From the NCBI GenBank assembly GCA_024405635.1, contig JAKSOL010000003.1:96001-160000 (forward strand): 64,000 bases of DNA, in the 5' to 3' direction. A program made the translations under genes and the position numbers. The stretch is from Salinivirgaceae bacterium (lineage in GTDB: Bacteria; Bacteroidota; Bacteroidia; Bacteroidales; SZUA-534). Below, one piece after another: positions 3,824-51,069 of this stretch (within the stretch, counting starts at the first letter, position 1; the number at the start of each line of letters is the position of its first letter). The notes below the pieces were generated by a model, which was not told the DNA's origin, searched no databases, and saw only the letters and a program-made list of their open reading frames with translations.

Positions 3824-4303
3824 TTACAATACGTCTTTTGTAAACGATAGCGATAAAAGGTCGGATGCACTATTGACTGAGTAGGTGTGGTTTGCGCCAA
3901 CCATAATAACCTCTAGTTTGCTGTTGTATCGAGTTTCGGTTTCGAGCAAAACTTGTCGGCACATGCCGCATGGGGTTATGGGCTCGTCGAGCAACTTGCC
4001 GTTGTTGAATGCTGCAATGGCTATGGCAACTGGAACAGCTTCGGGGTATGTTGAATTTGCGTAAAACATGGCAGTTCGTTCGGCGCAAATTCCGCAAGGG
4101 TACGATGCGTTTTCTTGGTTCGACCCTTCAATCATTTGTCCGTTGTTGAGCAAAACACAAGCGCCTACGTTAAATTTTGAGTATGGTGCATAGGCTCGTT
4201 TGGCTGCCGATTGTGCTCGTTTTGCTATTTCTTGTCGGCTTTGTTCTAGTTCGGCAATGCTATTAAACTGTTTTACGTTTATGCTTGATGTTAAGTTGTT
4301 CAT
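3824..4303 (-). CDS. cdd: Cytidine deaminase
   Basis: AYAPYSKFNVGA, NQENASY, CAER and PCGMCRQ zinc motifs. ATG at 4303 preferred over TTG at 4309. Confidence 0.93.
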   Translation of the reverse strand: MNNLTSSINVKQFNSIAELEQSRQEIAKRAQSAAKRAYAPYSKFNVGACVLLNNGQMIEGSNQENASYPCGICAERTAMFYANSTYPEAVPVAIAIAAFNNGKLLDEPITPCGMCRQVLLETETRYNSKLEVIMVGANHTYSVNSASDLLSLSFTKDVL

Positions 4304-4305
4304 AA

Positions 4306-5766
4306 TCAAAGTTTTTGGGCGTTTTTTAAAATGTCGAGCAAAAAGTTATAGAACATTGCAACGGTGGCAATTTCAACTTTTTCGCTAGGCGAGTGCACGT
4401 TTCGCAATGTTGGACCAACTGAAATCATGTCCATTTCGGGATATTTTTCTAAGAACAATCCACACTCCAAGCCGGCGTGAATGGCCTTTACTTTTGGTTC
4501 TTTTCCAAAGCGTTGCTTGTAACAATTGATGGCTACTGAAAGCAGTTGTGAGTTTGGATTTGGGTTCCAACCCGGATAACCTTCGGAGTGATTTATTTCG
4601 GCGCCATTGCTTTTAAAGGCGTTTGCAACCACAAGCGCAATGTTGTATTTCGAGTCTTCGACTGAACTGCGTTGGCTGGTTGCAATTTCTATTTTGTCGG
4701 CATCAATAAATTTGATTGATGCTAGGTTGGTTGATGTTTCAACCAGATTATCAATCGATTGGCTCATTGCAATAACGCCATTTGGGCAGGCCATTAGCGA
4801 GTTGAGCAACTTGTCGCGGTTTTCGGTTGCGAGTATTGTTGCAGGAGTTTCGTTTTTTTCAGCCAGCAAATTCATGTTTGGTTCGGTTTGGCTGAATTGG
4901 TTTGTTACTTGTTGTTTGTAGTTTTCAACGTAGGCAACAAAATCGGTTTCGGCATTTGCATCAACAGTAACAATGGCGTAGCAGTCGCGTGGAATGGCGT
5001 TGCGAAGGTTGCCGCCTTCAATTTTTGCCACACCTATATTAAATTGGTGCGATGCCGACCAAAGCAGTTTGGCAATTATTTTGTTGGCGTTGGCAAAACC
5101 TTTGTTAATGTCGTCGCCCGAATGGCCGCCATGCAATCCACCTATTGAAATTTTGTAGGCCGATGAATTGTCGGGGCAAGCTTGTGTTTTGTACTTCATG
5201 GTGGCGGTTGTGTCGATGCCGCCAGCGCAGCCTATGAAAATTTCGCCTTCGTCTTCTGAGTCAAGATTTATAAGCGTTTTTCCGGTAAGAAAATTGTCTT
5301 TTAGTGCAAATGCGCCAGTCAGACCAGTTTCTTCGTCAACGGTAAACAAACACTCAATTGCTGGATGTTCAATGCTTTGCGATGCCAAAATAGCAAGTTG
5401 AGTTGCTACTCCCATGCCATCGTCGGCGCCAAGTGTTGTGCCGTTTGCGCAAACCCATTCGCCGTCAATAATTGGTTGAATGGCATCGGTTTCAAAATTG
5501 TGAGTTGAATTGGCGTTTTTTTCGCACACCATATCTATATGACTTTGTAGCACAATGGTTTTGTGGCTTTCAAACCCTTTGGTTGCGGGTTTTTTAATAA
5601 GCACATTGCCTATCTCGTCGCGTTGAGTTTCAAGGTTGTGGCTTTTGCCAAAGTTGAGTAGGTATTCAATTATTTTTCCTTCTTTTTTCGATGGACGAGG
5701 CACTTTGCAAATTTCGGCAAAGTATTTCCAAACATCGGTAGGCTGAAGATTTTCTATCGAGTTCAT
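4306..5766 (-). CDS. pepD: Aminoacyl-histidine dipeptidase (M20)
   Basis: QSHIDMVCEK, TTLGADDG, DEETGL, NLDSEDEG, HAGLECG motifs. Confidence 0.93.
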   Translation of the reverse strand: MNSIENLQPTDVWKYFAEICKVPRPSKKEGKIIEYLLNFGKSHNLETQRDEIGNVLIKKPATKGFESHKTIVLQSHIDMVCEKNANSTHNFETDAIQPIIDGEWVCANGTTLGADDGMGVATQLAILASQSIEHPAIECLFTVDEETGLTGAFALKDNFLTGKTLINLDSEDEGEIFIGCAGGIDTTATMKYKTQACPDNSSAYKISIGGLHGGHSGDDINKGFANANKIIAKLLWSASHQFNIGVAKIEGGNLRNAIPRDCYAIVTVDANAETDFVAYVENYKQQVTNQFSQTEPNMNLLAEKNETPATILATENRDKLLNSLMACPNGVIAMSQSIDNLVETSTNLASIKFIDADKIEIATSQRSSVEDSKYNIALVVANAFKSNGAEINHSEGYPGWNPNPNSQLLSVAINCYKQRFGKEPKVKAIHAGLECGLFLEKYPEMDMISVGPTLRNVHSPSEKVEIATVAMFYNFLLDILKNAQKL

Positions 5767-43541: not shown

Positions 43542-45338
43542 GTGCAAGAGAAAATAATTGTATTGGATTTTGGTGGACAATATGCTCACCTTATTGCAAA
43601 CAGAGTGCGCCGTTTGGGCGTTTTTACTGAAATTTGTTCTCCAACAGCACCAGTTAGCGAACTGGTAGGAGCAAAGGGCATTATATATAGTGGTGGTCCT
43701 TCAAGTGTTTATGCTGAAGATGCACCAGAGTATAATCCTGAAATTTTGGACATTCCTGTGCCAAAATTGGGAATTTGTTATGGTCACCAACTTATGGCAT
43801 CGCAGCTTGGTGGTTCGGTTCGACCAGGAAAAGTAAAGGAGTATGGCATTGCCGATCTTTTGCTAACAGAACCACAACATCCGCTTTTGAAAGATATTCC
43901 TGCATCGTCGCCAATGTGGATGAGTCATGGCGATGCTGTTGAAAAATTGCCAGAGGGTTACAAAATTATTGCATCGACTAAAGATTGCCCAATTGCCGCT
44001 GTTGCACTTGATAGTCGAAAAATATATGGAATTCAGTTCCATCCCGAAGTAACTCACAGCAAATATGGCATGAAGATTCTTGATAACTTTATTGACATCT
44101 GTGGCTGCCAACGTACTTGGAACATGAAGAGCTACATGCCGCTTATTTCCGAAAAAATTAAAAACGAAGTTGGCAATCGCAAAGTGTTCTTGCTTGTTTC
44201 GGGAGGTGTTGATAGTACAGTTGCTTTTGTGCTCCTAAACAAAGTGCTTGGAACCGACCGTGTTCTTGGCCTTCATATCGACAACGGTATGATGCGTATG
44301 GACGAGAGCCAAAAGATTATTGAGTTTCTTAACGCTTCGGGTATGAACAATCTTCGCGTTGTTGATGCAACCGATTCATTCCTTGGTCGTCTTGAGGGAA
44401 TTACCGCTCCAGAAGAAAAGCGCAAGCGCATTGGTGCAACATTCCTTGTTGTTAAAGATGAGGAAATGGCTAAACTGAACCTCGATCCAAAAGAGTGGAT
44501 GATTGCTCAAGGAACTATTTATCCTGATACTATTGAAAGTGGCGGCACAAAGAATGCCGACCTAATTAAAACCCACCACAACCGTGTGCAAGAGGTGATG
44601 GACTTAATGGCACAAGGACTTCTTCTTGAGCCACTTGCCGACCTTTACAAAGACGAGGTTCGTATGCTTGGCGAGGAACTTGGCATTCCTCACAATCTTG
44701 TATGGCGCCACCCATTTCCAGGCCCAGGCCTTGGCGTGCGCATGCTTTGCACCGATGGCAAAGGCGAATTTGCAACCAATGCCGAAGTGGCAGGTTTGGC
44801 CGAGTATTTGAAAGAAAACAACATTGAAGGCAAAGTGTTGCCAATTAAGAGTGTTGGCGTGCAAGGCGACGGCCGCACATACGCGCAACCATTTTTGCTA
44901 ACAACCAAAAACCTAACATGGAAGCAATGTGAGAAATTTAGCACCGAATTGGTAAACCGTTTTAAGGTGATAAACCGTGTTATTTGGCAAGTTGGCTCGG
45001 TAAGCGACGATGATCCAAAACTTGTTGAGCAATATGCAACCAAAGACAAGTTCGACACCTTGCGCAAGTTTGACAACATTTGCACCGAGTTTTTGCAAGA
45101 GAACAACTTGTACGAGTCAATTTGGCAAATGCCAGTTGTGTTGGTTCCGCTTACAGTACAAGACAAACCTTGCATTGTGATGCGTCCAGTAAACAGCTCG
45201 GAGGCTATGACAGCCAACTTTGCCGAGATTGACCAAAAACTTCTTGAAGGACTTTGGGGCCGCTTTGTAGCCGAAGGCGCAGGTTCGCTTTGGTACGATG
45301 TTACCCACAAGCCTCCAGGCACTATTGAGTGGGAATAG
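43542..45338 (+). CDS. guaA: GMP synthase (glutamine-hydrolysing), long form
   Basis: LDFGGQY, SGGPSSV, LGICYGHQ, QFHPEV, SGGVDS, QGTIYPDTIES, IKTHHN, RHPFPGPGL, KPPGTIEWE. Confidence 0.96.
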   Translation: MQEKIIVLDFGGQYAHLIANRVRRLGVFTEICSPTAPVSELVGAKGIIYSGGPSSVYAEDAPEYNPEILDIPVPKLGICYGHQLMASQLGGSVRPGKVKEYGIADLLLTEPQHPLLKDIPASSPMWMSHGDAVEKLPEGYKIIASTKDCPIAAVALDSRKIYGIQFHPEVTHSKYGMKILDNFIDICGCQRTWNMKSYMPLISEKIKNEVGNRKVFLLVSGGVDSTVAFVLLNKVLGTDRVLGLHIDNGMMRMDESQKIIEFLNASGMNNLRVVDATDSFLGRLEGITAPEEKRKRIGATFLVVKDEEMAKLNLDPKEWMIAQGTIYPDTIESGGTKNADLIKTHHNRVQEVMDLMAQGLLLEPLADLYKDEVRMLGEELGIPHNLVWRHPFPGPGLGVRMLCTDGKGEFATNAEVAGLAEYLKENNIEGKVLPIKSVGVQGDGRTYAQPFLLTTKNLTWKQCEKFSTELVNRFKVINRVIWQVGSVSDDDPKLVEQYATKDKFDTLRKFDNICTEFLQENNLYESIWQMPVVLVPLTVQDKPCIVMRPVNSSEAMTANFAEIDQKLLEGLWGRFVAEGAGSLWYDVTHKPPGTIEWE

Positions 45339-45581: not shown

Positions 45582-45773
45582 CGAACTGAAACGTAGGAAA
45601 TTTCAAAACTGATGAAGGAATAAAGACAAAAGTGCAAACGTCCGTCATAGGCGGGCGTCTCTTGTCGTTCCTTCTGGTTTCCTACGACCACAGTTCGGGC
45701 AGGTTTCGCCCGTTCTTTATGTCGTAGGTTGTAAGAAGGACATTGGCAATTCGCTTAATAGCAAGTTGCCATG
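45582..45773 (+). ncRNA. Structured RNA leader upstream of the R-M genes (unassigned family)
   Basis: Five nested helices spanning 45582-45697, an alternative pairing with 45721-45740, and a hairpin running into the ATG. G-U pairs favour the + strand. Confidence 0.55.
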
Positions 45774-47831
45774 GCGAAAAGTATTGAAGAAAAAATCGAG
45801 GATATTGCTAAAAAGCAACTCGACAGATTTGGTGTGAAGTATCACATAAAGACGGACAACATAAATAGCGAGATTGACAATGCTCTGCAAAGCGCAAAGT
45901 CAAAGTCGGGAAATGATGGAGGTAACTATCCCGACATCAAGTGTCTGATTCAGTTACCACAAAGTCAGAAGTTTGTTCCTGTAATGATAGAGGTTAAAGG
46001 AACAAAGGGAGATTTCGCAAAAATCGAGGATGGAGAGGTCGCCAATTATGACGATAACGGCAAACCTATTTATAAACACATTAAGAAGTACGCTGTGAAT
46101 GGGGCCGTGCATTATTCGGAAGCCATAGCAAAAATCACTAAATCATATAGCGATGTTATAGCCATCGGATTCAACGGCTTTGATGCGTCGGGAAATGCTG
46201 AGCCGACAACAGAAATGGGTGTATATTATGTGAGCAAATCGAACATGTATTGCCCCAAGAAGGTGGGAGATTACAGCGATTTCTCTTTCTTGAAGGCAGA
46301 AAATGGCTCGATTTTAGAGGAAAGGCTTAACGCCATACTGCTTTCTGACGAGGAAAAGGAACGCCAAACTCGTGAGTTGGAGGATAGAATTGAAAATACC
46401 CTTGCCGAACTTAATCAGGATATGCGAGACAAGATGCGTGTGTCGGAGCCTAAAGATCGATTGAAGTTGGTGTGTGCTTTGATAATGGCAGCTCTTGGCG
46501 TGGAAGGGAAAATTCCGCCTCTTGAAATTGCCGATTTAAGAGGTTTACAAACCGAAGATGACCACGATGGAGCTATTATTTTGCGAAAGATAAAAGTGTT
46601 TTTGAACGAAAAACATATACCACAAGAAAAGCTCGACAATATATATTCGCTCTATAAAGGAATACTGAACGACGCTCTTTATTATCGGGCAATAAACGGC
46701 GAAAGCACGATAAAGACAGCCTTTATTTATGTGAAGGAAGAAATTATGCCAATCTTTACTATGGGAGAGGAAGTGCATATTGATTTTACTGGAAAACTGC
46801 TCAATGTGTTGACAGGTTGGATTACGGAGCGTGCAAGTGATGATGAAAGAAATGATGTTGTGCTTACTCCTCGATATGTTACCGAACTGATGGCAAAGCT
46901 ATGCAAAGTGAACAAGGATAGTTATGTTTGGGACTGGGCGACTGGCAGTGCTGGTTTTCTTGTCTCTGCTATGAAGTTGATGATTGACGATGCCAACAAA
47001 ACAATCCAAAGCGAAGATGAGCGAAAAGCAAAGATTGCAAAGATAAAAGTGGATCAGCTGCTTGGTATAGAGCTTAGGCAGGATATTTATGTTCTTGCCG
47101 TGCTTAATATGATTCTGATGAAAGATGGTTCAAGCCACATCTTGAATAAGGATTCGCTAAATGAATACAACGGAAAATATGAGCAGGGAAAAAATAAAGA
47201 TGATGAGTTCCCTGCCGATGTGTTCCTATTAAATCCTCCCTATTCGGCGGAAGGTAAAGGTTTTGTCTTTGTAGAAAAGGCTTTGAATCGAATGAACAAA
47301 GGTCGTGCGGCTGTGATTATTCAGGAAAATGCAGGAGGTGGCAAAGGCGATGGCTTTACTAAAAACATTTTGAAGCATAGCACATTGTTGGCTTCCATTC
47401 GTATGCCAATAGATTTGTTTATAGGCAAATCGAGTGTGCAGACTGCAATCTATTTGTTCGAGGTGGGGACACCACATGATACAGAGAGTCTTGTTACATT
47501 TGTAGATTTTAGTAATGATGGTTATGCCCGACAGAACCGCAAGAAATCAAACTCTAAAGTGAATTTGAAAGATGTGGATCATGTAAAGGAACGCTATGCA
47601 GAGTTGGTGGATATTGTACTTAATCGTAAGACAAAGACAAACTATTACACTGAGGCGAACGGACTTGTGGTGAAAGATTCCATTTCGCTCGAAGGCAACG
47701 ATTGGACATTCAATCAGCATCGCAAGATTGACACTATGCCAACCGAAGCAGATTTCCGCAAGACTGTTTCAGACTATTTGAGTTGGAAACTCTCAACCAT
47801 CATTAAGGAGGACGCTGCAAATTTTCAGTAA
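45771..47831 (+). CDS. Type IIB/IIG (BcgI-like) fused endonuclease-N6-adenine methyltransferase subunit
   Basis: N-terminal YPD...MIEVKG (PD-ExK), VVLTPRYV, motif I DWATGSAGF, motif IV LLNPPY (gamma order). Confidence 0.85.
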   Translation: MAKSIEEKIEDIAKKQLDRFGVKYHIKTDNINSEIDNALQSAKSKSGNDGGNYPDIKCLIQLPQSQKFVPVMIEVKGTKGDFAKIEDGEVANYDDNGKPIYKHIKKYAVNGAVHYSEAIAKITKSYSDVIAIGFNGFDASGNAEPTTEMGVYYVSKSNMYCPKKVGDYSDFSFLKAENGSILEERLNAILLSDEEKERQTRELEDRIENTLAELNQDMRDKMRVSEPKDRLKLVCALIMAALGVEGKIPPLEIADLRGLQTEDDHDGAIILRKIKVFLNEKHIPQEKLDNIYSLYKGILNDALYYRAINGESTIKTAFIYVKEEIMPIFTMGEEVHIDFTGKLLNVLTGWITERASDDERNDVVLTPRYVTELMAKLCKVNKDSYVWDWATGSAGFLVSAMKLMIDDANKTIQSEDERKAKIAKIKVDQLLGIELRQDIYVLAVLNMILMKDGSSHILNKDSLNEYNGKYEQGKNKDDEFPADVFLLNPPYSAEGKGFVFVEKALNRMNKGRAAVIIQENAGGGKGDGFTKNILKHSTLLASIRMPIDLFIGKSSVQTAIYLFEVGTPHDTESLVTFVDFSNDGYARQNRKKSNSKVNLKDVDHVKERYAELVDIVLNRKTKTNYYTEANGLVVKDSISLEGNDWTFNQHRKIDTMPTEADFRKTVSDYLSWKLSTIIKEDAANFQ

Positions 47832-47877
47832 GCCCTCGTTTGACAAAACTCAAAGAGGATTTTGAGGCAAGCGGGGG
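47804..47877 (+). promoter_or_regulatory. Candidate -1 programmed ribosomal frameshift cassette
   Basis: TAAGGAGG (47804-47811), A AAT TTT (47819-47825) in correct codon phase, and a 10-bp stem (47833-47842/47868-47877). Confidence 0.6.
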
Positions 47878-49060
47878 AGTTTGGAAAGAGTGGAGAATTG
47901 GGGATTTGTTTGACATACACCCGACTAAAGCATACAAGATGACTAATCTTGATTTGTTTAAGAATAAAGGTGATATACCAGTAGTAACAAATTCAAGTGT
48001 AGAAAATGGTATTACCGGATATGTAAATTTGAAACCAACTGAAAAGGGTGGTATTGTTACATATAGTGACACAACTACTGATGAAGGAATATTTTATCAG
48101 CCTTATGATTTTGTTGGGTATTCTCATGTTCAAGGTGTTTATCCGTTGAAAACCTATAATTGGAATGAGGACAAGCTTTTGTATTTTGTTTCATTATTCA
48201 AGAAATCTGCAAAAGGTCGTTTTGATTATGCTAGCAAATTCAATAGAGCAATAGCAAAAGAAATGCTTGTGAATCTTCCAACATTCAATGGCGAGCCATC
48301 CTATTTCTACATGGAACAATACATCTCTTTGTTAGAAAAAGAAAAGATGCTTCAAGTGGATAAATTCCTAAAAGATTCTGGCTTGAATGATACCACACTT
48401 ACTGTCGAAGAAACAGCTGCACTTGAAAAGTTTAGAAATGGAGAGGTGAAGTTTGTGGAGAGGAAGATAGGGGATTTGTTTGAAAAAGTCAAGTTAGGGA
48501 TTAGTAATCCTAATTTTAATAAAAAAACTGATTTGTCTGCTTGCAAAGATTTAGAACACCCAATTCCTGTGATAAATGCAAAAATTGGAGATAATGGAAT
48601 AATGTATTGGGCAAAGCAAGGAGATTTTGAGACTATTTCAAAGTGTATAGATGTTATTCAAAATGGAGCAATTGCTACAGGAAAAGTATATGCTCAACCT
48701 CAAGAAACAGGCGTGTTGTGGGATTCTTATTTGATTAAACATGTTAAAACAACTTTAGAAGATGAACAACTTTTTTTCTTTGCGACAGTCATAGAAAAAT
48801 CAATACGATTAAAATTTTATTATGATTGTAAGGCTTACTGGAATGAAGTAAAAGAAGAATTTATTATGTTGCCTTGTACTCTTGATAATGACATCGACTA
48901 CACCTTTATGCAACACTTTATATCGGCTTGGGAGAAGTTGGTGATGAGAGGTGTGGTAAAGTATAAGGACGAGATGTTGAATGCTTATGACAAAGCATTA
49001 GATTTTGCTGTGGCAGCTGAGCAAATGTTAAATTATGGACAAAAATCAGAATTTTTATAA
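47840..49060 (+). CDS. Restriction-modification specificity (S) subunit with two TRDs
   Basis: Internal duplication WKEWRIGDLF / FVERKIGDLF and PSYFYMEQYISLLEK / IDYTFMQHFISAWEK. The frame is open from 47807, and only a TTG start precedes the first conserved block. Confidence 0.85.
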   Translation: MTKLKEDFEASGGVWKEWRIGDLFDIHPTKAYKMTNLDLFKNKGDIPVVTNSSVENGITGYVNLKPTEKGGIVTYSDTTTDEGIFYQPYDFVGYSHVQGVYPLKTYNWNEDKLLYFVSLFKKSAKGRFDYASKFNRAIAKEMLVNLPTFNGEPSYFYMEQYISLLEKEKMLQVDKFLKDSGLNDTTLTVEETAALEKFRNGEVKFVERKIGDLFEKVKLGISNPNFNKKTDLSACKDLEHPIPVINAKIGDNGIMYWAKQGDFETISKCIDVIQNGAIATGKVYAQPQETGVLWDSYLIKHVKTTLEDEQLFFFATVIEKSIRLKFYYDCKAYWNEVKEEFIMLPCTLDNDIDYTFMQHFISAWEKLVMRGVVKYKDEMLNAYDKALDFAVAAEQMLNYGQKSEFL

Positions 49061-49282: not shown

Positions 49283-49759
49283 ATGGACAACAATTCGAGA
49301 ATAGACGCGCTTGACAGAAAGATTTTATCGATAATATCGAAGGATGCGCGCACGCCATTCCTTGAGGTGGCTCGAGAGTGCGGAGTGTCTGGTGCTGCCA
49401 TACACCAACGTGTTCAAAAGCTTGTCAACATGGGCGTTATTATAGGCTCGGAGTTCATTGTTAGTCCTCAAAGCATGGGATACAAAACATGCGCTTTTGT
49501 GGGCATCAACCTAAAAAAGGCTTGTCTTTATCAAGACATAGCCGAAGAGTTGGCCAAAATACCGGAGATAATTGAATGCCACTACGTTACCGGCAACTAC
49601 TCGCTCTTTATTAAAGTGATGGCACACGATAACGAGCACTTGCGAAAGATACTATCAGACAAGTTGCAACGACTCGATATTGTGGAGCGCACTGAGACCA
49701 TCATCTCGCTTGAGGAGAGTTTCCGCCGACAATTCCCAATCGATTTAGCAGAACAATAA
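49283..49759 (+). CDS. asnC: Lrp/AsnC family regulator
   Basis: IDALDRKIL...[33 protein letters not shown]. Confidence 0.9.
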
Positions 49760-49788
49760 ATACAAAACATAATCTAACTTTAAGTAAA

Positions 49789-51069
49789 ATGAATAAGGAC
49801 AACGAGATTTTCTCACTTATTGACAAAGAATACGCCCGCCAAAAACGTGGCATTGAGATGATTGCATCTGAAAACTTTGTGAGCGACCAAGTAATGCAAG
49901 CAATGGGTTCGTGCCTCACAAACAAATACGCCGAAGGTTACCCAGGCAAACGCCACTATGGTGGTTGCGAGGTTGTTGACGAGGTTGAAACTCTTGCTAT
50001 TGAGCGCTTGAAAAAGATTTATGGTGCTGAATATGCAAACGTACAACCACACTCGGGCGCACAAGCCAATGCAGCTGTGTTGCTTTGCGTACTTAATCCA
50101 GGCGATAAATTCATGGGCCTTGACCTTTCGCATGGTGGTCACCTTTCACACGGTTCGCATGTTAACACATCGGGTATGATTTACACTCCATGTGCATATC
50201 ACTTGAACAAAGAAACTGGCCGTGTTGATTACGACGAGATGGAAGAAGTTGCAATGCGCGAAAAACCAAAATTGATTATTGGTGGTGGTTCAGCATACAG
50301 TCGTGAATGGGATTATGCTCGTATGCGTAAGATTGCTGATGCTTGTGGCGCTTTGCTTATGGTTGACATGGCTCACCCAGCAGGTTTAATTGCAGCAGGT
50401 TTGCTTGACAACCCAGTTAAATATGCCGACATTGTTACCTCTACAACACACAAAACACTTCGTGGCCCACGTGGTGGTATTATTCTTATGGGTAAAGATT
50501 TTGAGAACCCATGGGGCAAGGCTACCAAAAAAGGTAAAATCCGCACAATGGGTAGCTTGTTGAATTCGGCAGTGTTCCCAGGTCAACAAGGTGGACCACT
50601 TGAGCATGTAATTGCAGCAAAAGCAGTTGCATTTGGCGAGGCTCTTACACCAGAGTTCAAAACATACCAAGAACAAGTTAAAAAGAACGCTGCAGCTTTG
50701 GCTAAAGCAATGACCGACAAAGGTTTCTTTATTATCTCTGGCGGTACCGATAACCACTCAATGTTGGTTGACTTGCGTCCAAAATATGCTGATTTGACAG
50801 GTAAAGTTGCTGAAAAAGCACTTGTTGCAGCCGACATTACCGTAAATATGAACCTTGTTCCATTCGATACTCGTAGCGCAATGGAAACCAGCGGTTTGCG
50901 TCTAGGTACCCCAGCCATCACAACTCGTGGTTTGAAAGAGGCTGATATGGTTACAATTACCGATATGATTGACCGTGTTCTTGCTGACCCAGAGAACGAG
51001 AGTGTAATTGCTGCAGTTCGCAAAGAGGTTAACGCAATGATGGAACCACGTCCAATGTTTGCTTGGTAG
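49789..51069 (+). CDS. glyA: Serine hydroxymethyltransferase
   Basis: [52 protein letters not shown]. Confidence 0.98.

Follow-up and report, generated by a model that had tools for sequence, protein, structure and literature searches.

A conserved candidate signal for -1 programmed ribosomal frameshifting between the RM and S reading frames of a BcgI-like restriction-modification locus in a Salinivirgaceae bacterium

In a contig of a Salinivirgaceae bacterium (GenBank assembly GCA_024405635.1, contig JAKSOL010000003.1), a gene for a combined restriction and modification protein (RM) is followed, in the -1 reading frame, by the coding sequence of a specificity protein (S); the locus lies in the stretch of 64,000 nucleotides (nt) that we call the window, i.e. 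positions 96,001 to 160,000 of the contig, where position 1 is the first letter of the stretch. Here, we have compared the RM/S junction of the window with those of its relatives, and we describe a slippery heptamer and a downstream hairpin, often accompanied by an upstream Shine-Dalgarno (SD)-like element; the conservation of this signal extends across phyla at the level of nucleotides, and through it S is very probably expressed by -1 programmed ribosomal frameshifting, in the style of dnaX and of the IS3 elements. Judged by its domains and their order, and not by alignment to BcgI, the RM and S locus has a BcgI-like (Type IIB-like) layout, with the following features:

45771..47831, forward strand: RM gene (686 amino acids (aa), ATG start), from its open reading frame (ORF) and translation; the zero-frame product.
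47804..47811, forward strand: Shine-Dalgarno-like TAAGGAGG, inside the RM coding sequence; candidate 5′ stimulator, 7 nt 5′ of the heptamer.
47819..47825, forward strand: slippery heptamer A_AAT_TTT in the RM phase, Asn684-Phe685, from the sequence and the comparison with relatives.
47829..47831, forward strand: zero-frame stop TAA, one codon 3′ of the heptamer, which ends the RM-only product.
47833..47877, forward strand: candidate 3′ stimulatory hairpin, 10-base-pair (bp) outer stem and 6-bp inner helix, from the fold and the relatives.
47825..49060, forward strand: coding sequence of S (specificity), -1 frame, read from the slip site, by translation and Pfam Methylase_S.

The RM ORF ends with GCA AAT TTT CAG TAA; the -1 frame is shut by the TAA at 47804-06, opens at 47807 and continues to 49060, and, when it is read from the slip site, it encodes a linker, SVSPRL...GG, followed by two target-recognition domains. 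A perfect AAGGAGG ends 7 nt 5′ of the heptamer, while the outer stem of the hairpin, CCCTCGTTTG (47833-42) / CAAGCGGGGG (47868-77), in which 2 of the 10 bp are G-U, begins 7 nt 3′ of it and encloses the inner helix CTCAAA (47849-54) / TTTGAG (47861-66). The earliest ATG, GTG or TTG of the S frame is TTG 47840, located within the 5′ arm of the hairpin, 8 nt past the RM stop; the ORF counted from this codon is 406 aa long, so that the predicted fusion of RM and S (RM~S) has 685 + 5 + 406 = 1096 aa. A frameshift had been proposed from these elements in an earlier reading of the letters of the window (the sequence-only reading), and each of them was found as placed there: the in-phase A AAT TTT at the RM 3′ end and the -1 frame opening, the SD-like motif 7 nt before the heptamer and the stem with its inner helix 7 nt after it, and the TTG as the first candidate start of the S frame, in the 5′ arm; the lengths that it predicted, 686 aa for RM and 1096 aa for RM~S, also follow from the ORFs.

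RM matches Pfam N6_Mtase at residues 364-612 (E 1.4e-22), as a gamma-type N6-adenine methyltransferase, and in an alignment of 18 diverse homologues (56-81% identity) its motif I (G392, G395, F396) and N488-P489-P490-Y491 are invariant. The same alignment has an invariant N-terminal PD...ExK motif (P54, D55, E74, K76), which reads PD...EVK in the RM of the window, and this motif alone, which has no Pfam match, points to a putative nuclease of the PD-(D/E)XK type. S (protein P0002) matches Pfam Methylase_S at residues 26-136 (E 5.6e-13) and contains two IGDLF-type recognition-domain starts. The sole match in an NCBIfam search was the MAD2 methyltransferase, below threshold (53 bits against a cut-off of 720), a PDB search gave distant HsdM matches only, the closest solved structure being the EcoKI M protein (E 1e-4), and the database names of the cluster members are generic, e.g. 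‘N-6 DNA methylase’.

The relatives come from a protein search for RM, where 120 homologues are listed at 55-93% identity, and from a scan of one genome per species, where the best 80 of 223 relatives were kept, i.e. 81 junctions with the window. We have classified 79 junctions (78 public loci and the window), leaving out L001, which has too little 3′ DNA but displays the same junction, and L012, which has an anomalous long open frame. S is located in the -1 frame at 57 of the 79 junctions; at 19 the longest downstream ORF is in the +1 frame, and three have none. The -1 phase, the slippery site, the hairpin and often the SD-like element recur in relatives at 52-93% identity, and the taxa that carry the signal include Bacteroidales, Prevotella, Alphaproteobacteria, Clostridia, Treponema, Fibrobacter, Helicobacteraceae, Opitutales, Lentisphaeraceae and Gastranaerophilales, as well as plasmids of Clostridium, Arsenophonus and Acinetobacter; the Helicobacteraceae relative (L029) has both heptamer and hairpin, and 4 of the 18 genomes scanned from the family of its genome gave matches. 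Among the 120 homologues listed, the C-terminus of RM is [N/D]F plus 0-1 residue in 112. The S frames of the -1 class stay open for 174-592 codons (most for 375-592), the shortest being broken or cut by the end of the locus. The usual length is 380-430 codons, and frames of 540-585 codons occur in L003, L014, L015, L020, L030, L031, L038, L055 and L058; these frames, about one and a half times as long as usual, may encode either a further (third) recognition domain or an additional domain.

An in-phase slippery site is located at 55 of the 57 -1-frame junctions, 0-15 nt from the RM stop (further upstream in L064), and the zero-frame stop of the relatives lies 0, 3 or 15 nt 3′ of the heptamer. 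The site is A_AAT_TTT in 27 junctions (26 found by script, and L064), G_GGA_AAA in 21, and G_GAT_TTT or G_GTT_TTT in seven, where the slippery part is the A-site tetramer T_TTT only. The alignment of homologous junctions, to which the sequence-only reading had pointed for a shared -1 phase and heptamer, was strongly positive on both (57/79 and 55/57). Within the RM ORFs of the classified junctions, AAATTTT or GGGAAAA is found in phase at 48 of the 57 -1 junctions, as opposed to 36 of 49,737 codon positions elsewhere. The choice of codons is equally marked: the slippery version is used at 25/25 distinct loci with N-F and at 21/21 with G-K, where 0.12 and 0.027 per locus would be expected from the codon usage of each locus given N-F or G-K, although the loci are related and these counts are not independent events. 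In passages of PMC4066793, the most efficient heptamers in E. coli include H_HH.U_UU.Y and V_VV.A_AA.R, and the tetramer U_UU.U is described as prone to shifting; all three site types of the RM/S junctions agree with these published motif rules.

The two exceptions among the 57 are L054, where a GTG start overlaps the RM stop and has an SD upstream, and L070, a metagenome-assembled genome (MAG) of Chitinivibrionia, where an A8 run with an in-phase A_AAA_AAA (at about locus position 4300) stands without a hairpin and no start codon precedes the recognition domain; this run may be a third solution, through ribosomal or transcriptional slippage. In L064, an Opitutales MAG, the zero-frame stop has mutated to CAA and RM is extended by 24 codons, which is why the slippery site is further from the stop; GGAGG, A_AAT_TTT and hairpin are all retained (locus 4510-4590), and therefore the signal does not depend on an adjacent stop. 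In L037 (locus ~4530-5000), G_GGA_AAA and a hairpin are present and the S frame has an internal stop (..FYAG*FTK..); this locus, excluded from the 57 on account of its broken S frame, is possibly a decaying copy or a sequencing error.

The hairpin of the window, folded as the 60 nt at 47826-47885, has an energy of -20.2 kcal/mol, compared with a mean of -12.4 for shuffled sequences (z -3.0; 2 of 200 shuffles equal it). In order to compare junctions, we folded the 55 nt that start 3 nt 3′ of the slippery site in 49 distinct junctions; their energies average -21.9 kcal/mol (range -15.8 to -29.2), against -8.3 kcal/mol (standard deviation 4.3) in 980 random RM windows and -7.05 kcal/mol in 21 junctions without the signal, each of the latter taken at the best of five offsets. 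The Mann-Whitney p values are 5e-31 and 2e-11, respectively, and 46 of the 49 junctions fall under the 5th percentile of the random RM windows, 31 of them under the 1st. Over 56 distinct junctions, the spacer between site and hairpin is 6 nt in 37, 5 nt in eight, 4 nt in five, 7 nt in four and 3 nt in two. An unbroken outer stem of 6-14 bp is present in 55 of these 56 (median 10; the 3-bp value of L021 corresponds to a differently placed fold), with 24 different 7-mers in the 5′ arm, the stems being taken from the fold of each sequence itself and hence fitted to structure. In examples such as GCCCTCG/CGAGGGC, GCCCACGCTT/AAGCGTGGGC, GCCCCACTTGAC/GTCAAGTGGGGC and GCCCGCGGCTG/CAGCCGCGGGC, pairing is preserved while the peptide encoded by the 3′ arm varies (..EGG, ..AWA, ..KWG, ..PRA). 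A covariance model (R1) built from 24 sequences with long loops found the long-loop group together with L023, L027 and L049, as well as weak matches on the reverse strand, and missed most of the short-loop hairpins; its alignment was therefore not used for counting pairs. No Rfam family matches the frameshift element, and nothing meaningful was returned by that search.

Upstream, 26 of 52 distinct junctions have an SD-like core with a minimum length of 5 nt, located 7-13 nt before the slip site, compared with 115 of 4316 background 20-mers, and the predicted pairing with the anti-SD averages -7.4 kcal/mol against a background of -2.3; it is missing from other junctions, 12 of the 52 being without a core of even 4 nt, so that this element seems to help without being essential.

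The start codons of the S frame bear on whether S could be made without a shift. No ATG, GTG or TTG occurs at or after the slip site in 27 of the 52 distinct junctions, and in 15 of the 52 none occurs anywhere in the open S frame ahead of the first recognition domain; start-less yet intact S frames are, at the level of sequence, the strongest single argument for frameshifting. The codon that aligns with TTG 47840 is TTG in only 18 of the 52, being otherwise CTT (7), TTA (7), TCT (5), CTG (4) or others; in this family it acts as a leucine codon rather than as a start. Among the plasmid loci, RefSeq gives S a CTG start on a Clostridium perfringens plasmid (L087, NZ_CP102305.1) and an ATA start on an Arsenophonus plasmid (L088, NZ_CP123501.1), both with G_GGA_AAA and hairpin, and S is unannotated on an Acinetobacter haemolyticus plasmid (L089, CP085285.1), which has G_GGA_AAG and hairpin; these three sites are additional to those counted above. 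The annotation gap at frameshift-type junctions looks systematic.

Translational coupling offers another route, in which ribosomes that terminate at TAA 47829 reinitiate at TTG 47840 and release a free S of 406 aa, the heptamer and the hairpin being incidental or serving another purpose. The TTG is located just 8 nt past the stop, 25 of the 52 junctions have an ATG, GTG or TTG past the slip site but ahead of the first recognition domain, and genes with overlapping RM stop and S start do occur within the family. We consider coupling as the sole route unlikely: it cannot serve the 15 junctions that have no start codon, it would have to use a TTG that is rarely kept and that is buried, in the window, within the 5′ arm of a hairpin of -20 kcal/mol, and it leaves unexplained the in-phase heptamers, the choice of slippery codons and the homology of the codons before the TTG to the linker of natural fusions. 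The overlapping genes themselves serve as a control; at 17 junctions, the RM stop is overlapped by an ATG or GTG that belongs to S, an SD-like sequence precedes this start, and S begins only 3-10 residues before the recognition-domain motif, lacking the linker of ~20 residues. Neither heptamer type and no hairpin was found at these 17 junctions, and therefore the linker and the RNA signal occur together, and only at the -1 offset.

The fusions in question are in-frame relatives. The homologue P0123 (Helicobacter himalayensis, 1378 aa) aligns to residues 1-679 of the window RM at 50% identity and continues onto the -1-frame peptide of the window from SPRL, three codons before TTG 47840, while L082 has an open frame of 1081 aa with the same in-frame RM~S design; by alignment, the natural in-frame fusions are colinear with the predicted trans-frame RM~S. 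In close as well as distant relatives, RM also occurs joined in frame with just one recognition domain (half-S): in four of the 120 homologues listed (P0012, P0013, P0014 and P0048), in L025 and L067, and, by the length of the open frame, in L045, L050 and L076. The half-S fusions are ~870-956 aa long, and the joining peptide of P0012-14 resembles the central conserved region of the window S (...EETAALEKFRNGEVKF...). These forms suggest repeated conversion among fused, frameshifted and separate RM/S layouts.

The existence of in-frame fusions, together with the stop inside S of L037, could also be taken to mean that the window carries a decaying single-chain gene, split by a deletion of 1 nt, with S as its unexpressed remnant. 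This we find scarcely credible, since 55 junctions across many phyla share the -1 layout with S intact (most of 375-592 codons), and the break always coincides with a slippery site that a hairpin accompanies; an indel that arose at random would be conserved neither in place nor in phase.

The offset could, finally, arise at the level of DNA or RNA, i.e. from an indel of assembly or sequencing, from phase variation by slipped-strand mispairing, or from transcriptional slippage at AAATTTT. Short homopolymer runs are indeed present, and at the A8 run that L070 has at the same place, slippage is conceivable; the runs known to give phase variation or transcriptional realignment are far longer than 3 and 4 bases. 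We have examined the contigs of four runs from three studies over 47500-48200, one of which may be the source of the window: all four cross the heptamer, three span the hairpin, and no letter is inserted or deleted there, although the contigs carry as many as 47 substitutions in 701 nt. The independent assemblies L002-L007 have the same arrangement of frames, which is found altogether in seven independent assemblies whose protein identity is 90-93%. A cause in the DNA or in the transcript is therefore very unlikely, and the 1-nt assembly error against which the sequence-only reading had warned is excluded as far as the contigs show.

Frameshifting is thus the reading that we prefer, with a probability of roughly 85%, and several observations weigh against it. 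Among the eight closest sequences there is no clear dip in variation at the junction (4 variable sites per 30 nt, compared with ~7 in the rest of the RM 3′ end). When 141 nt of context are folded, the energy is no better than that of shuffled sequences (z -0.82), although the hairpin is still found in the centroid structure; we have therefore relied on the local fold and the comparative controls. In the long-loop group, RNAalifold finds changes on both sides of the stem in only 3 of 8 consensus pairs; the alignment of this subgroup is free of gaps and its stem coincides with the conserved peptide SPR...GG, so that the conservation of the stem could be partly at the level of the protein. The canonical start codons after the slip site in 25 of the 52 junctions, and the TTG of the window, remain available for initiation, and free S from reinitiation at TTG 47840 could contribute in the window itself. 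The 12 junctions without an SD-like core include Prevotella, other Bacteroidales and Treponema, and the ribosomes of Bacteroidota make little use of SD pairing; the caution about the SD in this phylum that came with the original proposal therefore stands.

That shifting occurs, with what efficiency, and in which complex the products end up, we infer from the sequences. In the mechanism that we propose, a ribosome translating the RM mRNA would arrive at A_AAU_UUU, its P site occupied by tRNA-Asn and its A site by tRNA-Phe, and would be stalled by the GC-rich hairpin 7 nt downstream, possibly assisted by the internal AAGGAGG 7 nt upstream; some ribosomes would then slip back by one base. Those that do not shift would terminate two codons later, giving the 686-aa RM, while those that shift would read SVSPRL... 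and continue through S, giving the 1096-aa RM~S. The binding of RM to S is textbook knowledge; one free RM and one RM~S would together bring two catalytic RM units to each two-domain S, one of the two being covalently attached to it, and the production of both from one mRNA would yield the 2RM:1S ratio known for BcgI. A 1:1 stoichiometry of RM and RM~S would correspond to this arrangement. The fuller version of the proposal, in which S is obtained throughout the family by frameshifting alone, about one ribosome in two shifts, and RM~S with free RM is the tethered equivalent of the A2B complex of BcgI, is tentative, at slightly less than even odds in our estimation.

The surroundings of the pair are those of housekeeping genes (43542-45338 and 49283-51069): GMP synthase is located on the 5′ side, and an AsnC-family regulator and serine hydroxymethyltransferase (SHMT) on the 3′ side, with no HsdR among the flanking genes and no mobility gene in the immediate flanks. 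In L002-L007, RM is 90-93% identical to that of the window, yet the recognition domains of S diverge sharply from ~47910 (window 47910-49060), where 23-35 sites per 30 nt are variable, compared with ~7 upstream; this abrupt change fits the swapping of recognition domains between strains.

To our knowledge, few programmed -1 frameshifts have been described in bacterial genes that are cellular, i.e. not of transposons or phages. Our literature search found no report of ribosomal frameshifting in any restriction-modification system, and a look-up of terms in the portions covered of PMC3711429, PMC5009743 (its first 300,000 characters), PMC4066793 and bioRxiv 10.1101/2025.10.02.679949 gave none, while supplementary tables of surveys may list the family. 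The signal very probably gives rise to both RM and RM~S, and would thereby fix the 2:1 ratio of RM to S in a manner of which we found no earlier description in the literature searched. If the proposal holds, frameshifting at RM/S junctions is widespread, across many phyla and on plasmids, in an anti-phage defence system, and it would offer a concrete answer to a question raised in passages of PMC3874165 and PMC4027205, namely how enzymes with RM and S in one chain can provide one catalytic unit for every recognition domain. There are practical consequences as well: annotation pipelines either miss such S genes or assign them CTG or ATA starts, the lack of a start codon can lead to such systems being scored as inactive (as in a passage of PMC3936762), and the cloning of S alone for methylome or restriction work may fail to reproduce the native enzyme. 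The three natural types of cassette (A_AAU_UUU, G_GGA_AAA/G and the U_UUU tetramer), with their varied hairpins, also form a comparative series for frameshift efficiency; the series extends to Bacteroidota, in which ribosomes have an unusual way of dealing with SD sequences.

The closest known parallels for the signal are dnaX, with its tau and gamma products, and the OrfAB fusions of IS911 and other IS3 elements. The dnaX signal has an SD and a hairpin and an efficiency of roughly 50%. As at the RM/S junction of the window, both systems combine an X_XXY_YYZ heptamer with an SD-like element inside the coding sequence and with a hairpin that follows a few nt later, and, as predicted for RM and RM~S, both obtain two products from one mRNA in a set ratio; in the IS elements, as in RM/S, a fusion (OrfAB) arises by a shift near the end of the first ORF. 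The heptamers differ, those of the RM/S junctions being A_AAU_UUU and G_GGA_AAA/G and that of dnaX being A_AAA_AAG (named in a passage of PMC1851650), and the shift in dnaX shortens the protein, while in RM/S it would lengthen it.

With respect to the enzymes, BcgI resembles the window in its RM, which joins a nuclease to an N6-adenine methyltransferase, and in its HsdS-like S with two recognition domains; passages of PMC3592466, PMC3592470 and PMC3874165 state that it needs 2RM:1S. The S of BcgI is described as a separate polypeptide, whereas that of the window would be made, at least partly, as an extension of RM. AloI, CjeI, TstI and HaeIV have RM and S in one chain, as in the relatives P0123 (1378 aa) and L082 (1081 aa), and single chains of the AloI type have a fixed ratio of one RM to two target-recognition domains. 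A passage of PMC3874165 calls this ratio ‘a mystery’, since one recognition domain is left without an RM partner, and TstI behaves unlike BcgI (in the part of PMC4027205 that concerns it) because one recognition domain of its type has no such partner; the frameshift in the window would add the missing free RM.

A parallel from Helicobacter pylori concerns the missing start. As described in passages of PMC3936762, the addition of a ribosome binding site and a start codon to a start-less BcgI-like S led to N6-methyladenine (m6A) at TCAN6TRG, and the missing start was read as a cause of inactivity. The arrangement is the same as in the start-less relatives of the window, a likeness drawn from the start-less layout alone, and such ‘inactive’ systems may, by analogy, depend on similar recoding or on a second, shorter product.

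The product pair predicted for the window has, lastly, a counterpart made in the laboratory. According to passages of PMC3510504, an HsdM-HsdS fusion of EcoKI (‘Type IMS’), obtained by removing the frame offset between M and S, is active and needs added free M in vitro; fusion and free M are the same pair of products as RM~S and free RM. EcoKI is a Type I system with a separate HsdR, and its natural genes use coupling, not frameshifting. In the tentative, fuller version of the proposal, the three layouts that coexist among close relatives, namely frameshifted RM/RM~S, RM in frame with a half-S that would dimerise, and separate RM and S, would all be alternative solutions to the rule of one RM per recognition domain.

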